Source of the DNA: Oleispira sp.
Lineage (GTDB): Bacteria; Pseudomonadota; Gammaproteobacteria; Pseudomonadales; Oceanobacteraceae
DNA: 64,000 nucleotides
Direction: 5' to 3'
Assembly: GCA_047616865.1 (NCBI GenBank)
Contig: JBLGBO010000009.1
Span: forward strand, 72,076 to 136,075
Position numbers and translations under genes: made by a program. Of the stretch, positions 551 through 49,171 are shown piece by piece. The notes beneath the pieces are model-generated. The model was not told where the DNA came from. It saw only the letters and a list, made by a program, of their open reading frames with translations, and made no database searches. The number at the start of each line of letters is the position of its first letter. Positions within the stretch are counted from its first letter, which is position 1.

Positions 551-626
551 TTTCTAGTTAGTAGTAGCCTATATAAGTTTACTGCTATTAGTATTAATCC
601 AAACATATATCCAAGGAAGGATAAGA

Positions 627-3600: not shown

Positions 3601-3650
3601 GTAATGGTTATGATAATATGTCAAAAGACTACTGGCTGGAGAAGAACTAA
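627..3650 (+). CDS. pilY1: type IV pilus tip adhesin PilY1-like protein (N-terminal vWA domain with MIDAS DxSxS, C-terminal beta-propeller)
   Basis: 1007 aa with a signal peptide. Motif [11 protein letters not shown] is a vWA MIDAS. The size and a 1-nt stop/start overlap with the downstream pilin gene fit the PilY1-PilE arrangement. RBS aaggaagg at 613-620. Confidence 0.85.
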
Positions 3651-31650: not shown

Positions 31651-31803
31651 TTAAACATTCCTAAATTCTAATATACCGATGCATAATAACACGCCCTGAA
31701 CCCCCTTCGGTATTTCAGGTGTTGAACCTTATTTTGGTAGACTCAATAGACCTTAATCTAGTAAAGTTATAAAAAACTCAATACGAAGTAAGGATACTCA
31801 CTG

Positions 31804-34800
31804 GTGTTATCAATAAGCATATTACGTAAGCTAAGGATATTTTTCTGTCTCAGCCTAACAACTCTACTTTTACCTCAACATAGCTTCGCAGCATTACTCG
31901 ATGTTCAACAGGAAAATGACATTGTTTATTTTCTGTTTGCTGCACCCAATAAGATTGTTCGCTATGACCTGAGTAGCAATAAATTCATAAATAAAATCAG
32001 CTTAGATAATATACCAACCGCTTTCCATGTGAATAAATCCGCAATTTATATTTCCTATGGTGCAGAATTATTTAAGCATAAACTTGATGGGTTCACAGAC
32101 ACCAAGATATATCAAGCAGATGAAGACATAATAAATATAACAGCCATTGGCGCGAGTATTTATTTACTAAAAGATAATAGTCGTGCCGAAACGATCAGTG
32201 CGACTAATTTTCTAAGTACTGACAACGGTTATCATTACCAAGACTCTAGATACACCTCCAAAATTGCTTCACCGCTAAACCAAGCAATTTATACGCTAGG
32301 CTCTTCATCTAAGCCTTACAAAACGCTAATCAGTTATGCAGGGAAAATAGGCACTATAACGAGTTCACGATTTAGTCATTCAGAAATCCAATCGAATAAA
32401 ATATACCTACATCCTGATGAAGATAGAGTTTATACCGATGCAGGTTTAATCTACTCAACCGAAGACCTTTCATTTAAAGGAAGCTTAACCGGTAGTTTTA
32501 CAGACATGGCCTTTTTAGATAAACTGCCAGTTATCATTAGAAATCATACCCTCTACTTACTCACCGACACTGATAGGGACAACACGGAGTTCTCCTTAGA
32601 CCATACCCCAAGCCATGTTGCAGCAAAAGGCCAAATCATCACCACGTTCGTGACAACCGATAGCATAGCCACAGCTCATAAAACAAATATCGATCAACTT
32701 AGCGAACCACCGGTGGCAATTCCAGAAGATCCCAATTTCGCTAGCTATCACGCTGAGCTCATCACCACTGATAACAACAATATCGTCTACCTAGTCGATA
32801 AAAAAAATAAAGCAATACACCGTAGAATGGCCGCAGAAAGTGAATACACCAGCAGCTGGGGCTTAGTTAATAGTCCGAATTATATCAGCTACTCTGATTC
32901 TCATAAAAGACTCTATCTTGGTTATCGCTCAGGAAAAATCACCTATTTTGATGCCAGCTTAACAACAGGGGCCGTCGAAACCCACCTAATCAGCTTACCC
33001 TCTGAAATACTTGGCTTAACCGCTGCAGGAGATTATTTATACGTGAATGATCGCCAGGACGATAGCAGTACCAAAAGCTACAGCATCAACAAACTCGGCC
33101 AAGTCATAGATATTAGCAGCTCAAACGCGACTCAAAACTATGTGTGGAATCCATTAAATGACACCATTTATCATCTAGATGCTCGCTACCTAAGATGGAG
33201 AGCTCTATCCTCCAGCACGGGGGAGATTGATAGCCGTAATTACAGTAAACAAAAAACCAACAATACATCAAATTACAAACACCCTTTTTTAATAAGCCCG
33301 AATGGCCAAGTGCTATTAACCGGCTCAGGAGAAATTATAGGTGCTGAAAATAAAACCCTGCTCAACAGTCTTGATAATGCAATCGAGGATGCCACTTGGA
33401 TTAACGGCAACCTAGTAACAATTAAGGAAGGAGGAGATAAACTGCAAATTTGGCAAGAGGATTATTTGCTAGTAACAGAACACCCACTATCTAAAACACT
33501 AAAAACTCGGGTATTCAATTTACAAAATAAACTTTTAATTGTTAAGCAGTCGACTACGCGACCCGATATTATTTATTCTGACCTAGCAACACTTTCAGAA
33601 GTTGATAGCGATAGCGATACAATAAGCGATCTAAGCGACAACTGTGTATTAATTAGCAATCTCGATCAAGTCGATTTAGATTCTGATGGCAGCGGGGATT
33701 TATGTGATAATGATAGCGATGGAGATTTAATACCCAACCACATAGAAATTACCGCTGGCCTAAATGCATTCGACAATGAGGATGCATTATTAGATTTAGA
33801 CGGTGACGGCTTTAATAATTTAGTTGAATACTTCTACTCTACTGACATAAATGATAGCGAATCAAAGGCTGCCGTCATTCAAGAAATGAACGAGATTTTT
33901 GATAACGGAATTCCTCTAGGGTTTTATAGTTCCAACCCTAAAAATCCTTTAAGCATACTCAAGACAAACAATTCGTCATACCTAACACTCTCAACGCCTA
34001 ACAGTAATGAACAATCGCAGAGCCTATTTTATACAGCGGACTTTGAACAAGGCGCGCTGAGTATTGAATATGGTGCTTTATTGAATCGTTCCAAATACAA
34101 ACTCACAATCATAGTTGATGGTACGACAATAAAATCATCGACTGTTTACTATTATTATCATGACACTGATCCTATGCTGATTAGCCTTGAGAAAGGAATT
34201 CATACCATTGAATTTAAAATGACCTTTGATATCAACTCAAACTCGCAAAAAACATCACTCTTTTTCATTGATGAAATACATTATGGTCCAGATAGTGATG
34301 GCGATACTATATTCGATAGCCAAGACAACTGCCCTGCTACGGCCAATAGCAATCAATCTGACTCGGACCGCGATGGTTTAGGCAACGAATGCGATAACAA
34401 TCCTTTCGGTAGGGATAAAGATTCAGATGGATTTGGCGACAGTAAAGATAACTGCCCTAGTATTTACAATCCTGATCAATTAAATATTGATAATGATTAT
34501 TATGGCGATGCCTGCGACGATAGCGATGATAGACCCAGTGATGTTGACCAAGATGGTATTCCTGATGAGCGCGACAACTGTATGAATACAGCAAACCCCG
34601 ATCAAGACGATTTTGATTATGATCAGATCGGTGACGCCTGTGATCTAGACATCGATAATGATGGAGTATTGAATACTCTTGAAGATCAGTTTGATTTTAT
34701 GAATTCGTATGATCCTAGTGATGCCTCTCTCGATTTTGATAATGACGGCGCTTCAAATCAATACGAGATAAATAATAATTCCTCTCCAGCACAAGAGAAC

Positions 34801-35415
34801 ACATTCACAGAAATAGATTTATTAGACTATTACCCTGTTGGCGACCTAGATTACTTCTATATTTCTGACTATCAATTCATTCGTAGTTCTATGAAAAAAA
34901 CCGATACCCCTGGTCGCTTTATTCTCAGTAGTAGCAACGGAATAGAGTTAACCATTGAACGTCGAAGCAGTGGAATATACTTAGAATCTTTTACCTCTAC
35001 CTCTGGCTATTCAGACGCTTCGTATACTTTTGAGAACCATCTAATTCTTCCTAATCGTCTAAAACCTGGACACTCACTTACATTCAGCTCAATACAAACG
35101 GTCGCTGGCTCTAGTGATACCACGGAATATGAAAGATCGTTTTACTTAAAAGACGTTGGAGAAAGAGCTTGGAGAGGAAAAATTTATCCCTCCATTACCA
35201 TTATTGAAGATGGCGTAGAAAAGGTATATTTAAAAGGAATTGGGCAACTAACGTTAAACTATATGGAACTCGATAGCGTCAACTTCGATTTTATTGAGGC
35301 TCCAGGCGTTGTAGCTCCTGAGAAGAGTAAATCAAAAGCAGGCGCACTATCGCCACTCATCTTCTTTTTCTTTACAATAATGGCCATTGCCACACGAATA
35401 AGACGTCACCGGTAA
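31804..35415 (+). CDS. large secreted calcium-binding surface protein with thrombospondin type-3 (DxDxDG) repeats and a C-terminal TM/Arg-rich sorting-like tail
   Basis: 1203 aa. Signal peptide. Repeated DSDGDGxxD/DNCPxxxNPDQxDxDxDGxGDxCD modules at ~33590-34700. Terminal SPLIFFFFTIMAIATRIRRHR. Confidence 0.7.
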   Translation: MLSISILRKLRIFFCLSLTTLLLPQHSFAALLDVQQENDIVYFLFAAPNKIVRYDLSSNKFINKISLDNIPTAFHVNKSAIYISYGAELFKHKLDGFTDTKIYQADEDIINITAIGASIYLLKDNSRAETISATNFLSTDNGYHYQDSRYTSKIASPLNQAIYTLGSSSKPYKTLISYAGKIGTITSSRFSHSEIQSNKIYLHPDEDRVYTDAGLIYSTEDLSFKGSLTGSFTDMAFLDKLPVIIRNHTLYLLTDTDRDNTEFSLDHTPSHVAAKGQIITTFVTTDSIATAHKTNIDQLSEPPVAIPEDPNFASYHAELITTDNNNIVYLVDKKNKAIHRRMAAESEYTSSWGLVNSPNYISYSDSHKRLYLGYRSGKITYFDASLTTGAVETHLISLPSEILGLTAAGDYLYVNDRQDDSSTKSYSINKLGQVIDISSSNATQNYVWNPLNDTIYHLDARYLRWRALSSSTGEIDSRNYSKQKTNNTSNYKHPFLISPNGQVLLTGSGEIIGAENKTLLNSLDNAIEDATWINGNLVTIKEGGDKLQIWQEDYLLVTEHPLSKTLKTRVFNLQNKLLIVKQSTTRPDIIYSDLATLSEVDSDSDTISDLSDNCVLISNLDQVDLDSDGSGDLCDNDSDGDLIPNHIEITAGLNAFDNEDALLDLDGDGFNNLVEYFYSTDINDSESKAAVIQEMNEIFDNGIPLGFYSSNPKNPLSILKTNNSSYLTLSTPNSNEQSQSLFYTADFEQGALSIEYGALLNRSKYKLTIIVDGTTIKSSTVYYYYHDTDPMLISLEKGIHTIEFKMTFDINSNSQKTSLFFIDEIHYGPDSDGDTIFDSQDNCPATANSNQSDSDRDGLGNECDNNPFGRDKDSDGFGDSKDNCPSIYNPDQLNIDNDYYGDACDDSDDRPSDVDQDGIPDERDNCMNTANPDQDDFDYDQIGDACDLDIDNDGVLNTLEDQFDFMNSYDPSDASLDFDNDGASNQYEINNNSSPAQENTFTEIDLLDYYPVGDLDYFYISDYQFIRSSMKKTDTPGRFILSSSNGIELTIERRSSGIYLESFTSTSGYSDASYTFENHLILPNRLKPGHSLTFSSIQTVAGSSDTTEYERSFYLKDVGERAWRGKIYPSITIIEDGVEKVYLKGIGQLTLNYMELDSVNFDFIEAPGVVAPEKSKSKAGALSPLIFFFFTIMAIATRIRRHR

Positions 35416-35552: not shown

Positions 35553-35894
35553 GTGAAAATAAAGCACCTTTTGGCGCTACTAATTATTATCACGAATACG
35601 CTCATCAACAGCGTATGGGCTTCAGTGCATCTAATAGCTAACGAACACATTGGTTTAGAAACCCCTCACCTGCACATTGTTTCCGATCTAAAAACGCTGT
35701 TTGACTTTGGCAGCGAGCTTGATGAATCCGCACCAGAAATTGAAGAAACACATTTTCATGTGTTAAGCGATTTAACCACCCAATATTCTGGCAGCGATAG
35801 CCTTAAAGCGAGCTTAAACATAAGCAGTACTATTCCACATTATCGTACACGCACCTATAGCCCGCCGATTCCACCCCCTACCACCTGCTCATAA
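35553..35894 (+). CDS. small His-rich secreted protein (possible periplasmic metal-binding protein)
   Basis: 113 aa with a signal peptide and multiple His pairs (HLIANEH, HLH, THFH). Immediately upstream of czcC. Confidence 0.4.
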   Translation: MKIKHLLALLIIITNTLINSVWASVHLIANEHIGLETPHLHIVSDLKTLFDFGSELDESAPEIEETHFHVLSDLTTQYSGSDSLKASLNISSTIPHYRTRTYSPPIPPPTTCS

Positions 35895-35956: not shown

Positions 35957-37213
35957 ATGAATAAACATCGAATACGTACCCGCTTGGGTATGCTAATGCT
36001 GGTGTGCAGCTTGCCTGCCTATAGCTTACCTGGCAGTACTTTATCTGGCAGTAATTTACCTGGCAGCCTGTCGCTAAAATATGCGCTGCAACTAACACTG
36101 CAACAAAACCCTCAATTGAAAGCATACCCTTATTATGTGCGTCAGTTAGACGGAGAAGCTGTCCAAGCTGATCTCAATCCAATACCCAAAGCAGAAATTG
36201 AATTGAGTTCAGATGAGGCCACTCTTACGTTAAGTCAGAACTTTGAACTAGGAAACAAACGCCAAGCCAGAGTCGGCTTCACCAACGCTAAACAAGCACA
36301 ACTGCAAGCCGAATTTGAAATAGCCAAGCTGGATGTACTGGCAGAAACCAGCCGTCGTTATTATCAATTATTGGCTTTGCAAAAACAGAAGGCGCTTTTA
36401 ATCACGCGCCTAGGACAAGAAAAACGCGCACTTAAAATCATCAACAAAAGAGCACAAGCAGGTTCCGTTGCCCAAGCTGATGTCGCGACGATGGCCCTGG
36501 GATTAGCGCGTTCTAACAATACATTAGAGCAGCTAGAATTTGGTATTACATTGCAACGAGATGCTCTTAGCGCAATGTGGTTAGGTCAAAATAATACCAG
36601 CCAATTATTGGGCAACCTAGCCAAGTTACCGCAACTGCCCGATGATAAAACATTAACGGCCCTCATCAGCCAAGGCATCGATCAGCTGCCAGACTATCGT
36701 TATCAAGTCGCTCTTTCGCGCTTAGCCGATAGCCGTGTTTCGTTAAACCAAGCTAATGGCAGCGCAGATTTAAATCTCGGTTTAGGCTTGCGTCATAACG
36801 ATACCCGTGGTGATCAAAGTTTAGTATTAACCGCCTCAATGCCACTTAGTTTTAACAACCCTAATCGTGGGCGTATCGCCAGCGCTCAAGCTCAACAAGC
36901 CTTAAGTTACGAGCAACTGGAATTAAAACGCCAGCAATTAAGCATTGAGCTAACGCGCATCCAAACCCGCTTAAAAAAAGAGCAACAGCTAGCACAGCGT
37001 ATTAATAACGACTTATTACCCCTCGCCAGCGAGCTGCTTAGCACAACCCAAAAAGCTTATCGCCAAGGCCAGTACAGTGTTCTGCAATGGATCGATGCAC
37101 AGAACAAAGTCTTTAATTTAGAGCAGGACTTAATCAATAGCCAAGTCCGTATTTTCAACCATGTATTAGAACTGGAACGTATTTTAGGCCAGTCAATTGT
37201 TAATACTCAATAA
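35957..37213 (+). CDS. czcC: outer-membrane efflux protein (TolC family) of a heavy-metal RND system
   Basis: 418 aa with a signal peptide and OEP-family repeat structure. First gene of the CBA operon. Confidence 0.8.
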   Translation: MNKHRIRTRLGMLMLVCSLPAYSLPGSTLSGSNLPGSLSLKYALQLTLQQNPQLKAYPYYVRQLDGEAVQADLNPIPKAEIELSSDEATLTLSQNFELGNKRQARVGFTNAKQAQLQAEFEIAKLDVLAETSRRYYQLLALQKQKALLITRLGQEKRALKIINKRAQAGSVAQADVATMALGLARSNNTLEQLEFGITLQRDALSAMWLGQNNTSQLLGNLAKLPQLPDDKTLTALISQGIDQLPDYRYQVALSRLADSRVSLNQANGSADLNLGLGLRHNDTRGDQSLVLTASMPLSFNNPNRGRIASAQAQQALSYEQLELKRQQLSIELTRIQTRLKKEQQLAQRINNDLLPLASELLSTTQKAYRQGQYSVLQWIDAQNKVFNLEQDLINSQVRIFNHVLELERILGQSIVNTQ

Positions 37214-38159
37214 GGTTTTTATAATGAATTTATTATCCAGAATAATCGCACCATTTTTTATCATACTGGCATTTGTAACCAGTAGTTTTGTCAGCAGCGT
37301 ATTTGCCAGCGATGATCACGACCATCATGAACACGAAGAAGAGCATGCCGACAGCACTGAAATATCGTCTTATTACATTCAAGTTTCCGGTATTAAATCT
37401 GAAGCAGCAGGCTCACAAAACCTCGCTCAAATCGATACCCTATTTGGGGTAATTTCTCCGGTCCAAGATCAAGTCTTCAGCCTGCACGCCACTTTCCCGA
37501 GTATGGTTGAAAAAGTCTTTGTACAAGTCGGTGATCAAGTAAAAAAAGGCCAAATACTGGCACGTTTAAGCAATATTCAAACACTGCAAAGCTACACACT
37601 TAAAAGCCCGTCAAATGGTGAAGTGACGTCACGTTCGGTCAATACCGGTAACCGTATCGATGCTGAAGAAATGTTGCAGGTGAGTGATTTATCCAAAGTT
37701 TGGGTTAACTTATCGGCCTTTCCAGAAAATATTGAGCGTTTAAAAAAAGGCCAACGCGCAAAAATTTACGATCTACATGATCATGAAAATGCAATCGGCG
37801 AAATCAGTTATATTGCCCCCCAAATGAGTGGTGGTCACATCGCTCGTGCCCGTGCAATTATTGATAATCAACAAGGTCACTGGCGCCCTGGCATGCATAT
37901 AAAAGCGGATGTCGAAGTATCGACTCGCACAATTCCCATTGCCGTAAAAGTTGATGCCTTACAAACTATGGAAGACAAAACCGTCGTCTTCAAACGCCAC
38001 GGCAATAAATTTGAAACAACGCCAGTAGAAGTCGGTGAAAAAGATGGTCAGTGGGCAGAAATACTTTCTGGCTTAAGCGCTGGAGATAATTATGTCAGCG
38101 AAAATAGCTTCCTAATAAAAGCCGATATTTTAAAGAGTGGTGCCAGCCATGACCATTAA
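37197..38159 (+). CDS. czcB: RND efflux periplasmic adaptor (membrane fusion protein) with His-rich N-terminus
   Basis: DDHDHHEHEEEHAD His-rich segment followed by an HlyD-like adaptor. Overlaps the flanking genes. Confidence 0.8.
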   Translation: MLILNKVFIMNLLSRIIAPFFIILAFVTSSFVSSVFASDDHDHHEHEEEHADSTEISSYYIQVSGIKSEAAGSQNLAQIDTLFGVISPVQDQVFSLHATFPSMVEKVFVQVGDQVKKGQILARLSNIQTLQSYTLKSPSNGEVTSRSVNTGNRIDAEEMLQVSDLSKVWVNLSAFPENIERLKKGQRAKIYDLHDHENAIGEISYIAPQMSGGHIARARAIIDNQQGHWRPGMHIKADVEVSTRTIPIAVKVDALQTMEDKTVVFKRHGNKFETTPVEVGEKDGQWAEILSGLSAGDNYVSENSFLIKADILKSGASHDH

Positions 38160-41100
38160 TCATTTAATCACCTTCGCGATCGAAAGGCGCTGGTTAATAA
38201 TGGTCCTAACCTTATTATTAGCCGCACTGGGTATTTATAAAACCACCCAATTACCGATTGATGCCGTGCCCGACATCACCAATATACAAGTGCAAATTAA
38301 CAGCTCCGCGCCGGGATACTCCCCCTTAGAAGCTGAGCAACGCATTAGCTATACGGTAGAAAATGCTATGGCAGGAATTCCAAAACTGGATTATACCCGA
38401 TCACTGTCGCGCTATGGATTATCACAAGTCACGGTGATTTTTGAAGAAGGCACGGATATTTATTGGGCTCGCCAGCAAATCAGCGAACGCCTACAAGGTA
38501 TCCAAAGTGAATTGCCTGCGGGGATAGAACCTAAACTTGGCCCTGTCGCTAGCGGTCTCGGTGAAATTTTCACCTACGCAGTACAAGCTGAAGTGGATGC
38601 GGTGACCGATGCAGGTAAACCTTATAGCGCAGAAGATTTAAGAACCATCCAAGACTGGATCATTCGCCCGCAACTAGTCAAAGTCCCAGGTATTACAGAA
38701 ATTAATAGCATGGGCGGTTATGCACGGGAGTATCAAGTAGCACCCATTCCGGGAAAACTTTTCGCTTATAAAGTCACCATGAATGAGCTAGTAGAAACTC
38801 TAAAAAATAATAACCAAAATTCTGGCGCAGGTTATATCGAACGCAACGGCGAGCAATGGTTAATCCGTTCACCGGGCCAGTTGAATAACCTAGAAGAGAT
38901 TGCTCAACTGGTGGTCACTCGTCGCGACGATGCCCCTGTGCGCATTAAAGATTTAGCCGAAGTGAAATACGGCAAAGAACTCAGAACAGGTTCAGCTACG
39001 TTTAATAGTGAAGAAACTGTACTGGGTACGGCGTTTATGTTACTCGGTGAAAATAGCCGCACGGTTTCAAAAGCCGTGGCAAAAAAACTGATCGAAATTA
39101 ACGATTTCTTACCCCCCGGTATTCAAGCCGTTCCTGTTTATGATCGCACAACCTTAGTCGATAAAACCATCGACACCGTGCGCACCAATTTATTCGAAGG
39201 TGCGGTATTGGTGATCGCCGTTTTATTTGCCCTATTAGGCAATATTCGTGCGGCGTTGATCGTGGCACTGGTTATTCCTTTAAGCATGTTATTTGCGATT
39301 ACCGGCATGGCGATGAATCGTGTCTCTGGCAACCTGATGAGTTTGGGAGCGATTGATTTCGGCATCATAGTCGATGGTGCAGTTATCGTGGTTGAAAACG
39401 CATTGCGGCGCTTAGGCTTAGCGCAAAAAAAATACGGCCGTTTATTAACCGTGCAAGAACGTTTATTAGAAGTCACTGCCAGTACCAAGGAAGTTTTCCG
39501 CCCAGCTGTTTTTGGCATGTTAATTATCATGCTGGTGTACTTACCCATTTTCGCCCTTGCAGGGGTTGAAGGAAAAATGTTTCATCCAATGGCGTTCACC
39601 GTTGTGGCGGCCTTGTTCGGTGCATTAATTTTCTCCATCACCTTTGTTCCTGCCGCTGTCGCCATTTTAGTGAAAGGCAAGGTCAGTGAAGAAGAAAACT
39701 TCGTTATGGCCAAAGCCCGTCGTCTTTATCAGCCGCTACTAAAAACCGCATTAAATAACAGCCCGATTGTTTTTATCGCGGCGATTATTTTGCTCTCGGC
39801 AACGGCTTATCAATCAACAAGACTGGGCAGTGAGTTCTTACCGCAATTAGATGAACATGATATTGCGTTACACGCCATGCGCATTCCGGGCACGGGCATA
39901 GAGCAAGCGACGGCAATGCAATTATTATTAGAAAAACGCATTATGGAATTTCCAGAAGTGAAACACGTTTTTTCTAAAATTGGCACCGCAGAAATAGCTA
40001 CCGACCCGATGCCACCCAATGTTGCTGATACTTTTTTGATATTAAAACCAATAGCAGATTGGCCCAACCCAGAGAAAGAAAAACAACAATTGGTGGATCA
40101 GATCCGTCATGCCATAGAAGATATCCCTGGCAATAACTATGAATTAACACAGCCGATTGAAATGCGTTTTAACGAACTTATTTCAGGTGTCCGTGCTGAT
40201 GTGGCATTAAGAGTTTATGGTGACGATCTAGATACTTTGGCTAAAATTGGTGGTCAAGTATCGCAACTATTAGCGCAAGTTTCTGGTGGCCAAGACGTGC
40301 GCATGGAACAAGCGAAGGGTTTGCCGATGATCTCCGTTATTCCTCAAAGGGATCATTTAGCCTTGCTAGGATTATCCGTTGCTGATGTGCAAGAGACTTT
40401 ACGTTCTGCCGTGAGTGGTATTGAAACGGGTTTAATTTACGAAGGTGATCGTCGTTTTAAATTATTGGTGCGCATGGATGAAAGCTTAAGCAAAGACCCT
40501 AAAGCATTGGCACAAATTCCCGTCGCAATTCCTTACCCAAGAAGCCCTGATGATGAAAAATCAGAATTGGATTATGTGCCACTCGGTGAAATCGCCGACA
40601 TAGTAGAAATACAAGGGCCTAACCAAATCAATCGCCGCAGCGGCAAACGCAACATAGTCGTTAGCGCCAATGTGGAAGACCGTGATTTAGGCTCTTTCAT
40701 TGCAGAAACCCAAGAACTCATGCGCAACGAACTTAAGTTGCCCGCAGGCTATTGGCTAGAATACGGCGGTACGTTTGAACAGTTAGAATCTGCCAGCCAG
40801 CGTTTAAGTATTGTAGTACCCATTACTCTGTTACTTATTTTAGGCTTGCTCTATAGCGCCTTTAGCTCAATGCGCGATACGCTAATTATTTTCACCGGCG
40901 TGCCACTCGCACTCACGGGCGGTATCATCGCACTAACGTTAAGAGATATGCCATTATCAATTTCTGCAGGCGTTGGCTTTATCGCTCTGTCAGGGGTTGC
41001 GGTATTAAACGGTGTTGTGATGCTGTCGTTTATCAAAGAACTGCGTGAAAGTGGCCTAAAGCTTGCTCAAGCCGTCTGGCAAGGTGCAAGTCAGCGCTTA

Positions 41101-41301
41101 CGTCCGGTATTGATGACAGCTTTAGTGGCAAGTTTAGGCTTTGTGCCGATGGCGTTTAATACTGGCACGGGGGCAGAAGTTCAACGACCACTGGCGACTG
41201 TAGTGATTGGCGGAATTATTTCTTCAACGCTGCTAACGCTCATCGTTCTGCCGACACTGTATCAGTGGGTGCATTCTCGCTTTAAGGGATTTAATCGATA
41301 A
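38137..41301 (+). CDS. czcA: heavy-metal efflux RND transporter (HME-RND, CzcA/CusA family)
   Basis: 1054 aa, 12 TM. The N-terminal RWLIMVLTLLLAALGIYKTTQLPIDAVPDITNIQVQI is the HME-RND signature. Confidence 0.93.
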   Translation: MVPAMTINHLITFAIERRWLIMVLTLLLAALGIYKTTQLPIDAVPDITNIQVQINSSAPGYSPLEAEQRISYTVENAMAGIPKLDYTRSLSRYGLSQVTVIFEEGTDIYWARQQISERLQGIQSELPAGIEPKLGPVASGLGEIFTYAVQAEVDAVTDAGKPYSAEDLRTIQDWIIRPQLVKVPGITEINSMGGYAREYQVAPIPGKLFAYKVTMNELVETLKNNNQNSGAGYIERNGEQWLIRSPGQLNNLEEIAQLVVTRRDDAPVRIKDLAEVKYGKELRTGSATFNSEETVLGTAFMLLGENSRTVSKAVAKKLIEINDFLPPGIQAVPVYDRTTLVDKTIDTVRTNLFEGAVLVIAVLFALLGNIRAALIVALVIPLSMLFAITGMAMNRVSGNLMSLGAIDFGIIVDGAVIVVENALRRLGLAQKKYGRLLTVQERLLEVTASTKEVFRPAVFGMLIIMLVYLPIFALAGVEGKMFHPMAFTVVAALFGALIFSITFVPAAVAILVKGKVSEEENFVMAKARRLYQPLLKTALNNSPIVFIAAIILLSATAYQSTRLGSEFLPQLDEHDIALHAMRIPGTGIEQATAMQLLLEKRIMEFPEVKHVFSKIGTAEIATDPMPPNVADTFLILKPIADWPNPEKEKQQLVDQIRHAIEDIPGNNYELTQPIEMRFNELISGVRADVALRVYGDDLDTLAKIGGQVSQLLAQVSGGQDVRMEQAKGLPMISVIPQRDHLALLGLSVADVQETLRSAVSGIETGLIYEGDRRFKLLVRMDESLSKDPKALAQIPVAIPYPRSPDDEKSELDYVPLGEIADIVEIQGPNQINRRSGKRNIVVSANVEDRDLGSFIAETQELMRNELKLPAGYWLEYGGTFEQLESASQRLSIVVPITLLLILGLLYSAFSSMRDTLIIFTGVPLALTGGIIALTLRDMPLSISAGVGFIALSGVAVLNGVVMLSFIKELRESGLKLAQAVWQGASQRLRPVLMTALVASLGFVPMAFNTGTGAEVQRPLATVVIGGIISSTLLTLIVLPTLYQWVHSRFKGFNR

Positions 41302-41523: not shown

Positions 41524-42252
41524 ATGTCACATCTATTCGCGGCACTCCTGATTTTACTTAGTGTTACTGTATTGGCAAACCCATTAACCATAGTGACGGA
41601 GCAGTATCCTCCCTACAACTATGAAGAACAGGGTTCTATAAAAGGAATGAGTACAGAAGTTGTAAGCGCCGTTTTAAAAGAATTGGATTTAGAGGTAGAC
41701 ATAGAAATATACCCCTGGGCCCGCGCATATGATATGGCCTCTACCCAAGAGAACGTACTGATATATTCCATTAGCCGCACCCCTCAGCGTGAATCATTAT
41801 TTAACTGGGTAGGGGTGATTGCATCTATTGATTTCACGATTTTCGCATTAGAAAGAAGACAGGACATTAATATCCAGTCCTTAGAAGATATCCGAGCCTA
41901 CATGTTAGGCCTAGTTAGGGGTGATGCCCTTGAACAGTTTTTTAGCGCTAACAATTTCACTGAGATAGAAAGAGTCAATACCAATAAACAGGCAATGGAA
42001 ATGCTGCTTGCGAGCAGAACCGATCTATGGCCAATATCAAAGCAAGCCGGCGCCTATATTCTAAAGAAAAACAACATGATACCAGCCCAAACCGTGAGGG
42101 CTGTATTTGAACTAGAAGAGTTTTCTTCTGAAGACCTGTACATGGCTTTTAGTCGCTCGACCAATAAAAAACTCGTGAATGACTTTAAGCGTGCCTTAGA
42201 AAAGATAAAGGAAAACGGTATTTATAACGAGATTATTTCACGCTATCAGTAA
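41524..42252 (+). CDS. orphan periplasmic substrate-binding protein (SBP_bac_3/PBPb family)
   Basis: 242 aa with a signal peptide and a type-3 solute-binding fold. No adjacent permease or ATPase. Confidence 0.7.
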   Translation: MSHLFAALLILLSVTVLANPLTIVTEQYPPYNYEEQGSIKGMSTEVVSAVLKELDLEVDIEIYPWARAYDMASTQENVLIYSISRTPQRESLFNWVGVIASIDFTIFALERRQDINIQSLEDIRAYMLGLVRGDALEQFFSANNFTEIERVNTNKQAMEMLLASRTDLWPISKQAGAYILKKNNMIPAQTVRAVFELEEFSSEDLYMAFSRSTNKKLVNDFKRALEKIKENGIYNEIISRYQ

Positions 42253-42419: not shown

Positions 42420-43295
42420 TCAATCGCAATGATGAATACTTTCATTCAATACTCGATGAAATAAAGAATTCAATAAATCTATCGAATCTCCCTTGTCGCC
42501 ATATTTCCCAGCATAGCTTTCAAGCCTTAATAACTCAGTTTCAATAAAGGTATTAATGGGTTTTATAGGCAACGACAAAGCTTTTTCTGTCTCTGCTCGT
42601 TTACGGCGTAATAATTCGTTTATGTCTTCTAGCAAGCTATCGTTATCAAGTACACGATCCAACAAAACCGAAAACTGAATCGGCGCAGGTGTTTTATAAC
42701 GTTCTAACCAGCGTATCGATAGCAAAGCCCTTAGCACATAGAGATATTTTTTATAGGGCACTTTATCTGCTTTAAGATAACCTCGGTAATTGGTCTTGGC
42801 CATGCTGTGATAATGATGAATACCTTTTTCAGCGCTGTATATTTCTGGCAATAATGCCTTAGCACTCAAAGCAAAGTTTCCTTCGTTCGTATAAACAATC
42901 GGTGAATTGATCCACTCTACAAATGACGGATTGGAATTGCTGTATAGCTTCAAGGCTTTACGCAGATCCCAGCCATTAATATCGATCTCATCTACGATGG
43001 GATATTCGATAACATCTCGTTTAGCTTCTAAATCTATGTCTATATACCAATCTTTTTTGTGTATATAGATAAAACGTACATCATAATCACTCGTCGCTGA
43101 GGCAAAACCCCAAGCACGACTCCCTGACTCAATCGCTAGCAATACTTTAACGCCGTGCTCGATTTCTGCCGCGGCGATACGGTCTAATATTTCGTCGTGT
43201 ATGTTTTTTTCTATGTGCTCTATGGCATTTATTTCCATATCCAGTTTCATTTTATTGACTTTCCTTAATATATTTTTTAACCAGGCTAATCTCAT
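42420..43295 (-). CDS. Pol-beta-superfamily nucleotidyltransferase, RlaP-like (RNA-ligase-associated NTase family)
   Basis: GSRAWGFASATSDYDVRFIY is a hG[GS]x9-13DhD minimal NTase active site. 291 aa. Last gene of the rtcBA-linked module. Confidence 0.65.
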   Translation of the reverse strand: MRLAWLKNILRKVNKMKLDMEINAIEHIEKNIHDEILDRIAAAEIEHGVKVLLAIESGSRAWGFASATSDYDVRFIYIHKKDWYIDIDLEAKRDVIEYPIVDEIDINGWDLRKALKLYSNSNPSFVEWINSPIVYTNEGNFALSAKALLPEIYSAEKGIHHYHSMAKTNYRGYLKADKVPYKKYLYVLRALLSIRWLERYKTPAPIQFSVLLDRVLDNDSLLEDINELLRRKRAETEKALSLPIKPINTFIETELLRLESYAGKYGDKGDSIDLLNSLFHRVLNESIHHCD

Positions 43296-43324
43296 TTATT
43301 TGAAACTAGGCTAACCAACTGCGC

Positions 43325-44521
43325 TTATGTTCCTGACTGTCTAGTAGCAGAAGGGATTTTCACCAAATCATTCATTAAACCATCCAGCCCACCGTAAACA
43401 GAGATGTTATTAATACGGGCTGATATTTTTTCAAGTGTTTCCAGCTCTTTTAGGCGTAACAAGACAGCGTTATTTTCCATGACCTTCGCGGTATTGTGCA
43501 AGGAGCGCATCGCTTGAGTTTCTTCACGCCTTTTAATTAGATTAGCCTCAGCTTCTTTTTGCGCCTCTACTACCTTATTTAAAATTGCCTTCATGTCACC
43601 AGGCAATATAATGTCTTTGACACCCACCGACTGGACTTCAATGCCATACTCCATTAACCGAGTAGATATGCTGTTTTCTATGCATTCATTTAAGCTGTCT
43701 TTGTTTTCTAGCAACGCATCCAACGTTTGCGTACCTACGGCTTCACGTAAACGCAGCTGCATTTCGCGGTAGATAAAATCATTCATGCCATTCAATTTTA
43801 ATGCCGCTTTTTCTGCATCTACTATACAATAACTGGCACTTAGATTAATTCGCAAACTAACCCGGTCGCGCGTCAAAATCTCCTGCCCACTGACCTCCAG
43901 CGATTGTAAGCGTAAATCGATCATTTGCACTTCGATTGCTCTATTGTACTTCCAGAAACCGTACTGGCCTGGTGGCAAGAGGCGCTCATATTTACCGTTT
44001 ACAATTAATAGTGCGCAAAACTCGTTACGTACTTCAATATAACTAACGGCCTGAGCCAGTGTGTGTATTTTTTCCGAACCCGTTTGCATGATGGCATTAG
44101 CACCACGGCCTAAAAGATTCAAGTAACGACTATCGATTTGATAGCTTTCGCTGATATCAATAACCTTCACCGATACTTGTTCAGTATTTTCCATTTCATC
44201 ACCGCTAAAAAAGGCAACAAAACGACCTGGCTCCAACAGATCAACTAAGTGTCCATCACGAAAGACAAGGCCAACCTGATTATCAGTCATTTCATAATGA
44301 CTGATATAAGGCGTTAAAATTTCTGCGTATTTATTTAATAAAAACTTGGCATTATCATCTTGAAAATATAAACCTGTCACGTCGTGAATTTTTAATTCCA
44401 ATGCGCCATTGGCAGAAAATTCTCTGTACCGACCTGGCATTAATATTTTTTCAAAGCGCTGGCAGCGATATAACAAGCCTATCTGATTATCGGCGATATC
44501 ATAAGTGTTCCATAATTTCAT
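43325..44521 (-). CDS. SPFH/band-7 (slipin-like) domain protein with triplicated N-terminal SPFH-head motif
   Basis: C-terminal core GVKDIILPGDMKAILNKVVEAQKEAEANLIKRREETQA is SPFH. Three N-terminal copies of xNQxGLxxRxG...LxPGxYxF. No clear TM segment. Confidence 0.75.
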   Translation of the reverse strand: MKLWNTYDIADNQIGLLYRCQRFEKILMPGRYREFSANGALELKIHDVTGLYFQDDNAKFLLNKYAEILTPYISHYEMTDNQVGLVFRDGHLVDLLEPGRFVAFFSGDEMENTEQVSVKVIDISESYQIDSRYLNLLGRGANAIMQTGSEKIHTLAQAVSYIEVRNEFCALLIVNGKYERLLPPGQYGFWKYNRAIEVQMIDLRLQSLEVSGQEILTRDRVSLRINLSASYCIVDAEKAALKLNGMNDFIYREMQLRLREAVGTQTLDALLENKDSLNECIENSISTRLMEYGIEVQSVGVKDIILPGDMKAILNKVVEAQKEAEANLIKRREETQAMRSLHNTAKVMENNAVLLRLKELETLEKISARINNISVYGGLDGLMNDLVKIPSATRQSGT

Positions 44522-44761
44522 TTCATTTTACCTAACTCATACGAGCCATATTATATTTACTGAGGCGAGACCCTATCGGGAATGGTATGGTATTTTGCTT
44601 AGGTTAACAGGTTGATAAATACAGGGGCTACTCAGTGGTAATAACAACGGTATTCGCTTGCTATTACCATTAATTAGCATGTCGTTATCAAGTCCGCTAA
44701 CCAACCGACAAAATGCGATGCCATTGCAAATGGACCTCTATCAATTTATTCAAAGTTTAAA

Positions 44762-44826
44762 TGACTTTGTGAGGATTTGAACCTCGGGTCTTACGACCTT
44801 ACCGTAAGCCGTTGTTTAGACGGTGA
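44762..44826 (-). ncRNA. tRNA 3'-half-like element (class-II-like variable hairpin + T-arm GGTTCAAATCC + 3' acceptor strand, no 5' half)
   Basis: Reverse complement ...GGTCGTAAGACC-CGAGG-TTCAAAT-CCTCA-CAAAGTC-A. No matching 5' acceptor strand upstream. Directly abuts the tRNA-like element at 44829-44901. Confidence 0.4.
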
Positions 44827-44828
44827 AT

Positions 44829-44901
44829 GACTATCGCAGGAATCGAACCTGCACCGATCGACTTTTGTCGATTGCTCTAACTCACTGAGCTACATAGTCG
44901 C
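44829..44901 (-). ncRNA. non-canonical tRNA-like element (acceptor stem, D-arm and T-arm are good; anticodon loop has 6 nt). Candidate YrlA/Y-RNA-like RNA or tRNA pseudogene.
   Basis: Reverse complement GACTATG-TA-GCTC-AGTGAGTTA-GAGC-A-ATCGA-CAAAAG-TCGAT-CGGT-GCAGG-TTCGATT-CCTGC-GATAGTC-A. Stems pair, but the anticodon loop is 6 nt, so it is not a functional decoder. Confidence 0.5.
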
Positions 44902-45042
44902 ATTTAGGTTTTTTATCAGTGGTACACAATAAGTGAATAACCTTGCGCCAGCCTGGCATACAGAACCAGAACCATTAACTTAATAAAATATTGCCTAAAT
45001 AATTTTGTTCGAACGCTGTTTAAAACAACGCCGTCGCATTTT

Positions 45043-46086
45043 TTAATTTATCAATTCTTGCAAGTTTTTTAGGGGCGGTATATCCAGCTGCCAGCAACGC
45101 TTGTTTAATTGGTTCACTTCAATATTCAAATCCAGAAGTTGTTGAATAACGTTAATATTGGTAGTTGTATGTAAACTTGGTCGCCCTGTTTTAAAACTTC
45201 CCCCAGCAAATAACATCGGCAGTAATAATTGATCCGCCAAATATTCGCATACAGGCACTTGATTTTTCAGGTAACTTTGCACCCGCTGTTCAGCCAAGTT
45301 AGCGACCTTTTCGGCACGTAAACCTCTGCCACCCAGCTCATCAAATACTAGGGTGGTGTTCTCCATCGTCAGCTTCAGTGACAACAAATTTCCTGGCCCC
45401 GTAGACTCAACTAACTGCTCACTACACTCTTCTGGTAGCCAATGATGCTGCTGTTGTAATTGGCGTAATTCACGCACTAACACCTGCTGGGGAATTTGAC
45501 TGCCAATAGCATTGGCTTTTTTATCCACAAGTGCACCACTGTCTAATAACTGCAATGGCTCTAACACTTTGTGCGGTTTCAATTCCATCTTGATTGCACC
45601 ACCACCAGCGGGGTTAAAACCGTATTTCAATAGTTCGGCGGTGATCTGATAACCCATCTTTCTAACGGCCAAAATAAAACTGTTATTTAAAAATTCAAAA
45701 CTTGGTGCTTTGCTATTATGTGTACCGCCATTAATAATTACAGAGGATGCATGCGACTGTAATAATAGAGGCATCATTATAGTTTGTAGTACCAAGCTAG
45801 TACTGCCAGCGCTACCTACGGAAAATTCATAATCGCCGGGAATTACATTCCCTGGTTTAAAAATAACCTCTTGAGATCCCAGCTCATCACCACTGACATC
45901 TGCAGAACAAATAGTTTGTGCAGCGCGCAAGCAGGTTAAGTGCTGGCGTAACAAGCCAGGTTTTTTACGACCCCCTCGGATATTAACGATACGCACATCA
46001 AGACCTAGACACATCGCCAGGGTCAGTGTGGTGCGAAATATTTGTCCTCCACCTTCACCGGCGGCGCCATTAATTGTTCTCATCAT
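45043..46086 (-). CDS. rtcA: RNA 3'-terminal phosphate cyclase
   Basis: MMRTINGAAGEGGGQIFRTTLTLAM... aligns with E. coli RtcA [20 protein letters not shown]. The active-site His region (LQTIMMPLLLQSH) is present. Confidence 0.9.
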   Translation of the reverse strand: MMRTINGAAGEGGGQIFRTTLTLAMCLGLDVRIVNIRGGRKKPGLLRQHLTCLRAAQTICSADVSGDELGSQEVIFKPGNVIPGDYEFSVGSAGSTSLVLQTIMMPLLLQSHASSVIINGGTHNSKAPSFEFLNNSFILAVRKMGYQITAELLKYGFNPAGGGAIKMELKPHKVLEPLQLLDSGALVDKKANAIGSQIPQQVLVRELRQLQQQHHWLPEECSEQLVESTGPGNLLSLKLTMENTTLVFDELGGRGLRAEKVANLAEQRVQSYLKNQVPVCEYLADQLLLPMLFAGGSFKTGRPSLHTTTNINVIQQLLDLNIEVNQLNKRCWQLDIPPLKNLQELIN

Positions 46087-46123
46087 TCTTCCTTTAAATA
46101 CAATTTTCACTAATACTAAGTAA

Positions 46124-47350
46124 TTAACCTTTTACACAGACGACCTGTTTTAGCGTGTAGACAACTTCTACCAGATCTTTTTGCGCCTCCATTACCTTCT
46201 CAATGGATTTGTAAGCTGAAGGGGTTTCATCCAATATGCCCTCATCTGTTCTGCACTCCACACCCTCAAGTGCTTTTTTATGCTCAGTCATCGACACTAA
46301 TTTCTTAGCGGCCGTTCGTGACATCACACGTCCAGCACCATGACTGCAACTGCAAAAACTATCAGCATTGCCCAGTCCCCGCACAATAAAAGATTTTGCA
46401 CCCATGCTGCCAGGGATAATGCCCATCTCATCTTTTTGTGCCGATACCGCGCCCTTACGGGTAACCAATACATCCTTACCAAAATGATGCTCACGAGAAA
46501 TATAGTTATGGTGACAATTCACGGCTTCCACTCTTGCCTCAAACTCAATTCCCATAGTGAGCCTTACCGCCGCAATTACCCGAGCCATCATGACCTCACG
46601 GTTAATACGAGCAAAATTTTGTGCCCACTCTACCGCCTCAACATAATCAGTAAAATTATCGGAGCCCTCTGGCAAATAAGACAAATCGTTATCGGGCAAA
46701 TGTATATGCCAGCGCTCCATATCCTGCTTCGCCTTTTCGATAAAGTGCGTCCCTATACGGTTGCCTACACCACGAGAGCCACTGTGCAGCATAATCCATA
46801 CACTATTGTGCTCATCTAGGCACAACTCAATAAAATGGTTTCCCGTTCCCAACGTACCCAAATGATTCATGTTGTTGGTATTTTTCAAGACCTTATGTTT
46901 TTCTTTTAAAATATCAAACTGACCAGCCAATGGAGTCCACGCCTTAATTACATCTGCGGGTAAATCATTCCACGACCCCTTATCTCGCGCACCACGCAAG
47001 TGCCTAGAACGACCATGAGGAACGGCTTTTTCAATTGCAGAACGAATAGCAAATAAATTATCCGGTAGCTGATGAGCCAACAAACTGGTTTTAACCGCCA
47101 TCATCCCGCAACCAATATCCACTCCGACGGCCGCTGGAATTACCGCACCAATGGTGGGTACTACCGAACCGATCGTAGCGCCTTTACCTAGATGCACATC
47201 CGGCATGGCGGCAATCCATTTATGAATGAAAGGCATACGTGAAATATTTTTTAGCTGTTCACGGGCTTTGTCTTCAAACGGAACCCCTCGGGTCCAGGTT
47301 TTAATCGGTACACCACCGTCTTGCATCACTTCATAGGCTTCATCTGACAT
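46124..47350 (-). CDS. rtcB: RNA-splicing ligase RtcB
   Basis: 408 aa with PDVHLGKGATIGSV and C-terminal His/Cys metal-site motifs of RtcB. Confidence 0.95.
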   Translation of the reverse strand: MSDEAYEVMQDGGVPIKTWTRGVPFEDKAREQLKNISRMPFIHKWIAAMPDVHLGKGATIGSVVPTIGAVIPAAVGVDIGCGMMAVKTSLLAHQLPDNLFAIRSAIEKAVPHGRSRHLRGARDKGSWNDLPADVIKAWTPLAGQFDILKEKHKVLKNTNNMNHLGTLGTGNHFIELCLDEHNSVWIMLHSGSRGVGNRIGTHFIEKAKQDMERWHIHLPDNDLSYLPEGSDNFTDYVEAVEWAQNFARINREVMMARVIAAVRLTMGIEFEARVEAVNCHHNYISREHHFGKDVLVTRKGAVSAQKDEMGIIPGSMGAKSFIVRGLGNADSFCSCSHGAGRVMSRTAAKKLVSMTEHKKALEGVECRTDEGILDETPSAYKSIEKVMEAQKDLVEVVYTLKQVVCVKG

Positions 47351-47416
47351 TGCTAACTTCCTTACTGAGAATTTTGTTATGGCTCTTGTTATTGCCCTTT
47401 CAGTTACAGTTTGTAT

Positions 47417-47433
47417 AGCGATGACTATGCCAA
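47417..47433 (-). promoter_or_regulatory. sigma54 (-24/-12) promoter for rtcBA
   Basis: Minus-strand TTGGCAT-AGTCA-TCGCT has GG-N10-GC at canonical spacing, ~70 bp upstream of the rtcB ATG. The RtcR bEBP is encoded divergently. Confidence 0.45.
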
Positions 47434-47575
47434 CTTTTCAAATCCTCTTGAAAATAAATCGTAACCTATTGTTTTTATTACATTTATTAATTTTAAATAT
47501 ATTTAAATGAAAATTCACGACCACATAGGTTAGAATAATATCTATCTTATTCGATAGGTTTATAATATTTTAGAT

Positions 47576-49171
47576 ATGAAAACTGTTGCTATTAGTATAT
47601 TGGGTACCGTGCTAGATCGACGAGGAAAACGCCAAAACCGCTGGGATAAGTGGCGACCTACCGTCTCCATCTGCCAACAAGATGACTTAGTGATCGATCG
47701 TCTGGAGTTAATCTTTGATAACCATTCGCTAACCTTGGCTGAACAGGTCAAAGACGACATCGAGCAATCATCACCAGAAACCGAAGTTGTGCTCCATAAG
47801 GTTAATTATTTAGACCCATGGGACTTTGAAGATGTTTATAGCCAGCTTCTAGATTTCAGTCGAGCCTATGATTTCAATACCGATACAGAAGACTATTTAG
47901 TCCACATCACCACAGGGACACACGTTGCTCAGATCTGCCTGTATCTACTAACGGAATCTGGCTACCTGCCTGGGAAGTTAATACAAACCTCACCTTCAAA
48001 AAGTGAAAACAAAGCTAAGGGCTCTTATCAAATCATTGATCTGGATTTATCACGATATGACCAAATAGCCTCTCGCTTCAATAAAGAACATACTGAAGGC
48101 ACCACGCATCTCAAAAGTGGCATTGACACAAAAAACGAAAAATTTAATCTAATGATCGAGCAATTAGAGAAAGTATCCATTCGTTCCGATGAGCCTATTT
48201 TAATCACTGGACCAACAGGCGCAGGCAAATCGAAGCTGGCTGAGCGTATTTATCAATTGCGCAAACAGCGCGCCAAACTAAAGGGAAAACTCATTACGGT
48301 AAATTGTGCAACTTTACGTGGCGATAACGCCATCTCAGCATTATTTGGCCATAAAAAGGGAGCGTTTACTGGAGCGGCAGCAGACCGCACCGGTCTTTTA
48401 AGGGAGGCTAATGACGGTTTATTATTTTTAGATGAGATTGGTGAGCTTGGACTGGATGAGCAAGCAATGTTACTCAGCGCCATTGAAGATAAGCATTTTA
48501 TGCCACTCGGTTCAGATAAAATGGTGTTCAGTGATTTTCAATTAATTGTCGGCACTAACAGAGACTTAATTAAGCAAAGCCAACAAGGAAAGTTCAGGGA
48601 AGATCTATTAGCGCGTATTGATTTATGGACTTACCGATTACCAGCCCTAAAAGAACGCTTAGAAGATTTTGACGCCAATCTTGATTTTGAATTAGATAAA
48701 TTTTCTAGCAAGGCCGGTTACCTAGTGAAATTCAACAAGGCGGCCCGCGAAAAATATTTAGCCTTTTCTAAATCACCAGCCGCTAGCTGGAATGCTAATT
48801 TTCGGGATCTAAATGCCAGCATCACTCGAATGTCTACCCTGTCAGATGGAGGACGCATTACCGAAGACTTAGTTACTGAAGAAGTACTACGACTAAAGCA
48901 CAAATGGCGCGAGACAAATAGCACTGATCCCACACTGGTTTTGCAGTCACTGTTAGATGAGAAGACTTTAAGCGATATGGATTATTACGACCAACTTAAC
49001 TTACTTAATATCATCGATATTTGCCGCAACAGTCAATCAATGGCCGAAGCTGGGAGAACGCTATTTGACAAAAGCCGCCAAATTAAAAAGTCATCCAACG
49101 ACTCTCATAGAGTAAAACAACTACTCAGTAAGCTAGATATTTCTTTCGAAAAAATTCGACAACTGCCATAA
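47576..49171 (+). CDS. rtcR: sigma54-dependent transcriptional activator RtcR (N-terminal CARF-like domain, AAA+ sigma54-interaction domain, C-terminal HTH)
   Basis: Walker A GPTGAGKS and the GAFTGA motif (HKKGAFTGAAADR). 531 aa, divergent from rtcB. Confidence 0.9.
   Translation: MKTVAISILGTVLDRRGKRQNRWDKWRPTVSICQQDDLVIDRLELIFDNHSLTLAEQVKDDIEQSSPETEVVLHKVNYLDPWDFEDVYSQLLDFSRAYDFNTDTEDYLVHITTGTHVAQICLYLLTESGYLPGKLIQTSPSKSENKAKGSYQIIDLDLSRYDQIASRFNKEHTEGTTHLKSGIDTKNEKFNLMIEQLEKVSIRSDEPILITGPTGAGKSKLAERIYQLRKQRAKLKGKLITVNCATLRGDNAISALFGHKKGAFTGAAADRTGLLREANDGLLFLDEIGELGLDEQAMLLSAIEDKHFMPLGSDKMVFSDFQLIVGTNRDLIKQSQQGKFREDLLARIDLWTYRLPALKERLEDFDANLDFELDKFSSKAGYLVKFNKAAREKYLAFSKSPAASWNANFRDLNASITRMSTLSDGGRITEDLVTEEVLRLKHKWRETNSTDPTLVLQSLLDEKTLSDMDYYDQLNLLNIIDICRNSQSMAEAGRTLFDKSRQIKKSSNDSHRVKQLLSKLDISFEKIRQLP

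Follow-up and report, generated by a model that had tools for sequence, protein, structure and literature searches.

A large calcium-repeat protein of Oleispira whose C-terminal tail is probably a divergent GlyGly-CTERM sorting signal

We describe here a gene of Oleispira sp. that encodes a 1203-residue protein with thrombospondin type 3 (TSP3) repeats and lies at positions 31804 to 35415 of a 64-kb stretch of contig JBLGBO010000009.1 (the whole of this stretch is referred to below as the window). Our analysis indicates, with a probability that we put at roughly 0.6, that the product is a Sec-exported, calcium-loaded, multidomain TSP3/propeller binding protein and that it ends in a divergent version of the GlyGly-CTERM sorting signal. 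The observations behind this reading are the domain architecture, the homology of the TSP3 repeats, the homology between this tail and GlyGly-CTERM tails that score above or just below the cutoff of the curated model, and the strict conservation of a single glycine. From this standpoint, the signal peptide would direct export through Sec, and the C-terminal helix would retain the protein in the inner membrane with the terminal RIRRHR in the cytoplasm. A rhombosortase (a rhomboid-family intramembrane protease), presumably encoded in the same genome, would then cut K-A-G|A after G1180, the new C-terminal glycine would be joined to a glycerophosphoethanolamine-containing lipid, and a type II secretion system (T2SS) would carry the protein to the cell surface. 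There the tandem propeller and a jelly-roll domain would serve as ligand-binding modules on two rigid, Ca2+-filled TSP3 wires and together would constitute an adhesin or a matrix/cohesion protein. Since the tail looks like a slightly degenerate GlyGly-CTERM copy, the gene would be an uncharacterised member of a known system rather than a new one. We file the protein as homologous to GlyGly-CTERM cargo and as working like it, below the threshold of the curated hidden Markov model (HMM).

The C-terminus of the protein reads ...KAGALSPLIFFFFTIMAIATRIRRHR and is made up of the following elements.

35299 to 35334, forward strand: low-complexity linker APGVVAPEKSKS, residues 1166-1177, differing between orthologs in both length and sequence
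35335 to 35346, forward strand: signature motif K-A-G-A, residues 1178-1181, in which G1180 would be the P1 residue and carry the lipid, placed by the ortholog alignment
35347 to 35394, forward strand: hydrophobic helix LSPLIFFFFTIMAIAT, residues 1182-1197, with a helix-breaking proline at +4, placed by Kyte-Doolittle hydropathy
35395 to 35412, forward strand: basic cluster RIRRHR, residues 1198-1203, at the extreme C-terminus, in which R1198 and R1201 are well conserved

The order KAGA, LSPLIFFFFTIMAIAT, RIRRHR-stop is the tripartite layout of GlyGly-CTERM signals. As a heuristic, the only 17-residue stretches in the whole protein with a Kyte-Doolittle mean above 1.8 are those starting at residues 1179 to 1181, and by sequence reading the protein combines a signal peptide with a single other transmembrane segment, the C-terminal helix, as GlyGly-CTERM proteins do. 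The linker is Pro- and Lys-rich and flexible, and residues 1166-1203 contain no cysteine, which sets the tail apart from MYXO-CTERM. Within the linker, a stretch A-P-E-[KQ]-S (residues 1171-1175, nucleotides 35314-35328) is kept in most Oleispira-type orthologs and is not found in the outgroup; it gives no match to a PEP-CTERM model.

The proposed identity of the tail comes from its orthologs. A protein search found 18 full-length orthologs, 35-99% identical, from Oleispira, Cellvibrio and other marine bacteria, and the 18 sequences align collinearly over their whole length, signal peptide and tail included. The register of the tail was fixed by alignment to GGGS, SGGA and SGGH tails. One ortholog, P0016, has a tail (GGSLSWFIIIFLSML...) that passes the GlyGly-CTERM model TIGR03501 with a score of 19.2 bits where 15.5 are required, and it is part of the collinear alignment. 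The tails of P0009, P0017 and P0018 fall just below the cutoff (12.3-13.9 bits, P0009 at 12.3), and those of P0002, P0007 and P0015 weakly match the last ~30 positions of the SVAGG GlyGly-CTERM family NF038115 (E 0.0008-0.17), a family that the window tail does not match and whose protein body is unrelated. G1180 is invariant in all 18 sequences (entropy 0), while positions within ten residues on either side have entropies of ~1 to 2.7 bits. The preceding position, 1179, is glycine in 10 of the 18 and alanine in the other 8 and nothing else; on the tree it has switched between the two at least twice independently, with G-G-S as the outgroup state. In the typical S-G-G-S motif the two glycines are the best-conserved residues; of these, the second is present throughout the alignment and the first is replaced by alanine in the window protein and the other A-G orthologs. 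The variants found across the orthologs are G-G-S, G-G-A, G-G-H, A-G-A and A-G-H. Haft and Varghese made their HMM deliberately stringent and promoted low-scoring tails when full-length homology extended through trusted ones (PMC3237569); the window tail falls within that curation rule because the 18-sequence homology continues through the model-passing tail of P0016. The sorting-signal idea of an earlier note on this DNA, made from the sequence alone, is thereby supported and refined, in that orthology supports a divergent GlyGly-CTERM identity for the tail, although the window tail itself gives no match of its own to the model.

Experimental knowledge of this type of tail comes from the protease VesB of Vibrio cholerae. 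Rhombosortase exposes the second glycine of the VesB motif, which is then lipid-modified, and cleavage after the second glycine, a glycerophosphoethanolamine-type modification and T2SS-dependent display have been established for VesB only (PMC6219818). In the alignment the invariant G1180 corresponds to this glycine. Site saturation identified G383 as the most sensitive position of VesB (PMC11389362), and in V. cholerae the substitutions G382A, G383A and S381K left activities of 116%, 153% and 123%, while S384A left less than 1% (PMC11389362); alanine at motif positions also occurs naturally in some rhombosortase targets (PMC11389362). By analogy with these mutants, the P3, P2 and P1 residues of K-A-G-A are all compatible with cleavage.

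The tails also appear to move between alleles. The window protein is 91% identical to P0002 in the C-terminal domain and 58% in the tail, and towards P0005 the figures are reversed (92% in the tail, 58% in the C-terminal domain). In three other ortholog pairs the C-terminal halves, comprising the second TSP3 block, the C-terminal domain and the tail, are 90-100% identical, and the propellers 45-54%. This mosaicism, seen among orthologs P0002-P0014 and the window protein, suggests recombination of C-terminal cassettes, unless some of the metagenome contigs are chimeric. If A-G and G-G tails are alternative cassettes, functional equivalence of the two is easier to reconcile with the data than decay of one of them. 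Published work has found GlyGly-CTERM motifs to be interchangeable (PMC13393428), in agreement with cassette swapping.

Upstream of the tail the protein is built from the following parts, whose folds were predicted by running AlphaFold2 (AF2) on the 18-ortholog alignment and matched against the PDB with Foldseek.

31804 to 31890, forward strand: putative Sec signal peptide, residues 1-29, by sequence reading, with n-region RK..R, h-region IFFCLSLTTLLL and c-region SFA|A
31891 to 33588, forward strand: tandem beta-propeller, residues 30-595, from AF2 and Foldseek
33589 to 33873, forward strand: TSP3 block 1, residues 596-690, four loops and the pair Cys614-Cys634, from Pfam, loop count and AF2
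33874 to 34287, forward strand: jelly-roll beta-sandwich, residues 691-828, resembling MAM, CBM22, CBM6-35-36 and gingipain adhesin folds
34288 to 34773, forward strand: TSP3 block 2, residues 829-990, nine loops and three Cys pairs, from the family profile and loop count
34774 to 35298, forward strand: C-terminal all-beta domain without a family assignment, residues 991-1165, 11 strands in AF2 at a predicted local distance difference test (pLDDT) of ~85-92

The assignment of the repeats as TSP3, which the earlier note had made by eye, is borne out by HMMs. The Pfam TSP_3 model (PF02412) far exceeds its cutoff of 25 bits with a score of 88.9, spread over six stretches of the protein. The family profile matches COMP (E=2.6e-54) as well as thrombospondin-2 (E=2.8e-44), and its alignments to these and to thrombospondin-1 cover the repeats only (profile positions 825-954). 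By sequence the repeats are thus homologous to the thrombospondin/COMP type 3 repeats. The protein has 14 DxDxD cores, where shuffled sequences lead one to expect 1.3 (shuffle maximum 7). The DxDxDGxxDxxD calcium loops that had been described are present, but a relaxed count gives 13, four in residues 596-690 and nine in residues 829-990, so that the figure of more than 15 in a single central third was a modest overstatement of what are two separate blocks. Four Cys pairs with a 20-residue spacing stand at the canonical repeats. Structure prediction of this region, which had been proposed as a check, places both blocks in the irregular calcium "wire" conformation with hardly any regular secondary structure. 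By analogy with their eukaryotic counterparts, both blocks would bind calcium. Our literature search on bacterial TSP3 adhesins returned nothing specific.

The signal peptide has no lipobox, and its n/h/c layout is kept in the orthologs. The beta-propeller-like periodicity that had been noticed in the N-terminal region proved to be well founded: the N-terminal half is modelled at a pLDDT of 89.5 and a predicted TM-score of 0.87, and its top PDB matches are all tandem WD-type structures, of the Utp21 and Apaf-1 double-propeller type, at 8-12% identity. A profile search with the propeller region for more distant relatives was uninformative, giving one marginal match and missing the 18 known orthologs, and absence of such relatives therefore cannot be inferred from it. 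The jelly-roll domain, 138 residues long and without cysteine, separates the two TSP3 blocks, with AF2 placing its boundaries at about residues 695-829. For the C-terminal half (pLDDT 85.8, with the terminal beta-domain at about residues 1013-1164) Foldseek returned the signature domains of thrombospondin-2, thrombospondin-1 and COMP at the top, although at a TM-score of only ~0.1, followed by CBM6/35/36 and MAM jelly rolls. The domain at residues 991-1165 has no Pfam match, TSP_C included, and no sequence match to TSP_C through the family profile. A true thrombospondin signature domain was accordingly rejected, there being no TSP_C domain by sequence. What had been described as a C-terminal domain of ~230 residues is shorter, with a globular part of ~175 residues (991-1165) followed by 38 residues of linker and tail. 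The propeller and the jelly-roll are binding modules, not enzymes, and on this ground an adhesive or matrix-binding role is proposed by analogy.

Apart from the SVAGG family, three known systems come closest to this protein. The GlyGly-CTERM cargo of rhombosortase (TIGR03501 and TIGR03902), represented by VesB, VesC and Xds of Vibrio cholerae and ExeM of Shewanella, carries S-G-G-S where the window protein has K-A-G-A, with alanine at P1' and a tail that fails the curated HMM; its helix-breaking proline is at +12, whereas that of the window protein is at +4, and the known cargo proteins are proteases or nucleases, in contrast to the window protein, which is non-enzymatic and has a TSP3/propeller build and a mass of 130 kDa. 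The second, MtsC of Myxococcus xanthus (NF047638, "cell-cell cohesion MYXO-CTERM protein"), likewise combines TSP3 repeats with a sorting tag of tripartite layout at the C-terminus (PMC12475490). Among NCBIfam models it matches the window protein best, at 137.3 bits against a cutoff of 350, with the best stretch in the TSP3 repeats, but its tag is a Cys-containing MYXO-CTERM on which myxosortase acts, and a tandem propeller is lacking. With the signature regions of thrombospondins and COMP (PDB 1yo8, 2rhp, 3fby and 1ux6) the window protein shares the DxDxDGxxDxxD loops, the Cys pairs and a predicted calcium wire that leads into a beta-sandwich. It differs from them in having neither EGF repeats nor a TSP_C lectin domain detectable by sequence, in the arrangement of its repeats in two blocks around a jelly-roll, and in its bacterial origin, its tandem propeller and its membrane-sorting tail. 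NCBI already names the orthologs "thrombospondin type 3 repeat-containing protein".

We looked for the enzyme that would process such a tail and for other proteins that carry one. Rhombosortase seeds were obtained by back-translating the published active-site peptide of SO_2504 and scanning metagenome contigs, which gave six Shewanella-type enzymes; the seed scores 179 bits on TIGR03902, and a protein search with it had only Shewanella among the matches listed. We then gathered 150 diverse rhombosortase representatives, ten of which are named, with no Oceanospirillales among those ten; 137 of the 150 went into a profile. This profile recovers Shewanella control loci at 221-238 bits. Further ortholog loci, and the 10 kb that flank the window on either side, have no rhomboid gene in their Pfam annotation; with these flanks the search of the source contig covers ~84 kb. 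A search of the literature for a rhomboid in Oleispira found nothing specific. Indirect support comes from related genera, since the curated GlyGly-CTERM genomes include Bermanella (under the name Oceanobacter sp. RED65) and Cellvibrio japonicus (PMC3237569), and from a peptidase of related Oleispira contigs that is described below. In the 80 loci that the genome scan placed nearest to its Colwellia-like first sequence, no GlyGly-CTERM target adjoins the rhombosortase. Enzyme and target are adjacent only in single-target genomes and are normally unlinked in multi-target ones (PMC3237569), and the lack of a rhombosortase close to the gene is therefore to be expected.

No second protein with a GlyGly-CTERM-type tail is encoded in the 64-kb window. 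On the Oleispira contigs L008 and L096 an 861-residue S8/PKD peptidase with the tail SSSSGGGG, a transmembrane segment and basic residues (AASSSSGGGGALLYFGVILFLLSGMNFRTRHKSF) lies ~6 kb from the ortholog; it is absent from the window.

L096, 10610 to 13195, reverse strand: S8/PKD peptidase, downstream of czcA
L008, 19586 to 22221, reverse strand: S8/PKD peptidase, downstream of czcA

Its alignment to the NCBIfam sortase-dependent M36 peptidases extends to the ends of the profiles. In L008 it is annotated as two separate gene calls, for which a frameshift or a fault in the assembly may be responsible.

Several observations weigh against a processed GlyGly-CTERM tail on the window protein. Taken alone or within the full protein, the tail has no NCBIfam sorting-signal match at E≤10 and is below the TIGR03501 cutoff, much as the earlier note had said in finding that the motif matches no known signal exactly, and none of the four A-G tails tested (window, P0004, P0010 and P0013) matches any NCBIfam sorting-signal model; the S8 peptidase tail likewise fails TIGR03501. 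In the aligned register P1' is alanine, the counterpart of the nearly inactive VesB S384A, and P0009, which comes near to passing TIGR03501, likewise has G-G-A. VesB requires leucine at +7 and proline at +12, whereas the window protein has its proline at +4. These VesB-derived caveats are real, but all of them derive from a single pair of enzyme and substrate in a different bacterial order. The 137-sequence profile detects a rhombosortase neither in the window nor in 14 loci (L001-L014, including the ortholog loci L001-L008), and none lies up to 10 kb from eight contig regions that carry orthologs (those of the window protein, P0012, P0015, P0016, P0017, P0018, P0007 and P0013). The 80 loci of the genome scan, from Alteromonadales and one Saccharophagus, did not reach Oleispira. 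The adhesive and calcium-binding functions, too, are argued solely from analogy.

Most of these points would be accommodated by the main rival explanation, which we consider possible if clearly the less probable account: that the tail, whether a GlyGly-CTERM that has decayed or a mere stop-transfer helix, stays unprocessed and tethers the protein to the inner membrane with its ectodomain in the periplasm. The failure of TIGR03501 and of all other sorting-signal models, the alanine at P1', the lack of a rhombosortase in ~84 kb of the source contig and the absence from the window of the GG-tailed S8 peptidase of its relatives all fit an unprocessed anchor. It leaves unexplained, however, why one glycine should be invariant among varying neighbors in orthologs of 35-99% identity, with only Gly or Ala before it, and why an A-G tail should be 92% identical in alleles whose adjacent domain is at 58%. 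A 130-kDa, Ca2+-dependent TSP3/propeller ectodomain would also be unusual in the periplasm, and the lack of linkage carries less weight given that rhombosortase genes normally lie apart from their targets in multi-target genomes (PMC3237569). Release of a soluble extracellular Ca2+-binding protein, through cutting of the disordered linker by a general rhomboid of the GlpG type or by another protease, is in our view unlikely. The flexible, low-complexity linker of varying length would suit such release, GlpG cuts the VesB linker when rhombosortase is absent (PMC11389362) and VesC is freed by autoproteolysis (PMC13393428), but the conserved element is the glycine at the start of the helix and not the linker, and the protein contains no protease domain with which to free itself. 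Release is, moreover, compatible with surface anchoring and the two are not mutually exclusive.

Sorting by a different enzyme (exosortase with PEP-CTERM, myxosortase with MYXO-CTERM, a proteobacterial sortase with LPXTG, or an undescribed one) is the least probable of these explanations, and very much so. The tripartite layout is common to all of these systems, the best partial NCBIfam match is to a MYXO-CTERM TSP3 protein, and the linker stretch APE[KQ]S is kept in Oleispira-type orthologs. The tail, however, has no PEP, LPXTG or Cys motif and no NCBIfam match of these kinds at E≤10, the MtsC match is restricted to the TSP3 repeats (137 bits against 350), and the APE is six residues before the motif and missing in the outgroup orthologs. 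The tails of the orthologs that can be typed are GlyGly-CTERM and of no other type. The PEP-CTERM, MYXO-CTERM and LPXTG identities were rejected, as there is no such motif beside the helix and no model match.

A bolder version of the GlyGly-CTERM reading, which we regard as rather doubtful, holds that the A-G tail is a functional variant, invisible to the HMM and passed around between Oleispira alleles as an exchangeable cassette, and, alternatively or in addition, that this Asp-rich surface protein binds divalent metals and works with the adjacent efflux systems. Were the A-G tail such a variant, the substrate repertoire of rhombosortase would be systematically under-annotated.

If our main reading is correct, a small family of large calcium-repeat proteins from cold-marine hydrocarbon degraders and their relatives would join the rhombosortase/T2SS display pathway, for which proteases and nucleases have so far been the main examples. 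The curated GlyGly-CTERM model would then miss natural Ala-Gly variants with an invariant cleavage-site glycine, and the G-G-S, G-G-A, G-G-H, A-G-A and A-G-H tails on orthologous proteins would provide a natural test set for rhombosortase specificity. In other respects this is an ordinary, uncharacterised surface protein.

The gene itself is well defined by its open reading frame (ORF), by Pfam and by its orthologs, and the coordinates, forward strand, length and C-terminal tail given in the earlier note are exact on reading the sequence.

31790 to 31794, forward strand: AAGGA, Shine-Dalgarno-like, 9 nt before the GTG start codon, by direct sequence reading
31804 to 35415, forward strand: TSP3-repeat protein gene, GTG start, stop codon included

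The ortholog proteins start at the residue equivalent to this GTG, and an identical copy of the protein is present on two independent Logan contigs. The window belongs to a metagenome-assembled genome of Oleispira sp., its IleS, Obg and GdhA being identical to the NCBI proteins MFT4907407.1, MFT4907441.1 and MFT4907452.1. A promoter and terminator scan around the gene gave no signal above shuffled expectation. On the opposite strand beside the gene lie a LysR regulator and the two halves of a split Sulf_transp/DUF6691 pair of the YeeE/YedE type, and 3' of it a 113-residue ORF is followed by a triplet of OEP, membrane-fusion and AcrB-family genes of the resistance-nodulation-division (RND) type (window 35957-41301), as expected from the earlier description of a divergent YeeE/YedE pair and a downstream czc operon. 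The czcCBA genes adjoin the TSP3 orthologs throughout Oleispira. A functional operon with czc was rejected, as the synteny is confined to Oleispira and a separate small ORF lies between.

This small ORF (window 35553-35894, forward strand, between the TSP3 and OEP genes) has a signal-peptide-like N-terminus and several histidines, with no Pfam or NCBIfam match, and an unannotated ORF of 114-130 residues is found at the equivalent position in the Oleispira-type contigs L008, L096 and L097. Its product might serve the efflux operon as a small accessory in the periplasm. The TSP3 ortholog stands beside cation-efflux genes in two distant lineages, an RND triplet in Oleispira and a cation diffusion facilitator transporter in a Cellvibrio metagenome-assembled genome (L006 13782-14735), and has no cation-efflux neighbor in three other lineages (L003, L004 and L095). 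The adjacency in two lineages may be coincidence.

Further along the window, positions 42420-49171 hold an RNA-repair island (RlaP, Band_7/SPFH, RtcA, RtcB and the sigma-54 activator RtcR), which together with a solute-binding protein gene (41524-42252) occupies the interval between czcA and kdsA. This interval appears to be a strain-variable locus, because related Oleispira contigs have the S8 peptidase there. At the other end, window positions 146-4186, and likewise L102, carry a type IV pilus minor-pilin cluster that includes a VWA-PilY1 protein of 1007 residues and a ComP_DUS-type pilin, and just upstream of the window are two more PilY1 paralogs and PilW/PilX/GspH-like genes. About 0.5 kb past gdhA, the right-hand gene of the window, a gene on the reverse strand (L100 8081-9538) encodes a protein with Big_5 and Ice_binding domains, which fits a cold-adapted Oleispira.

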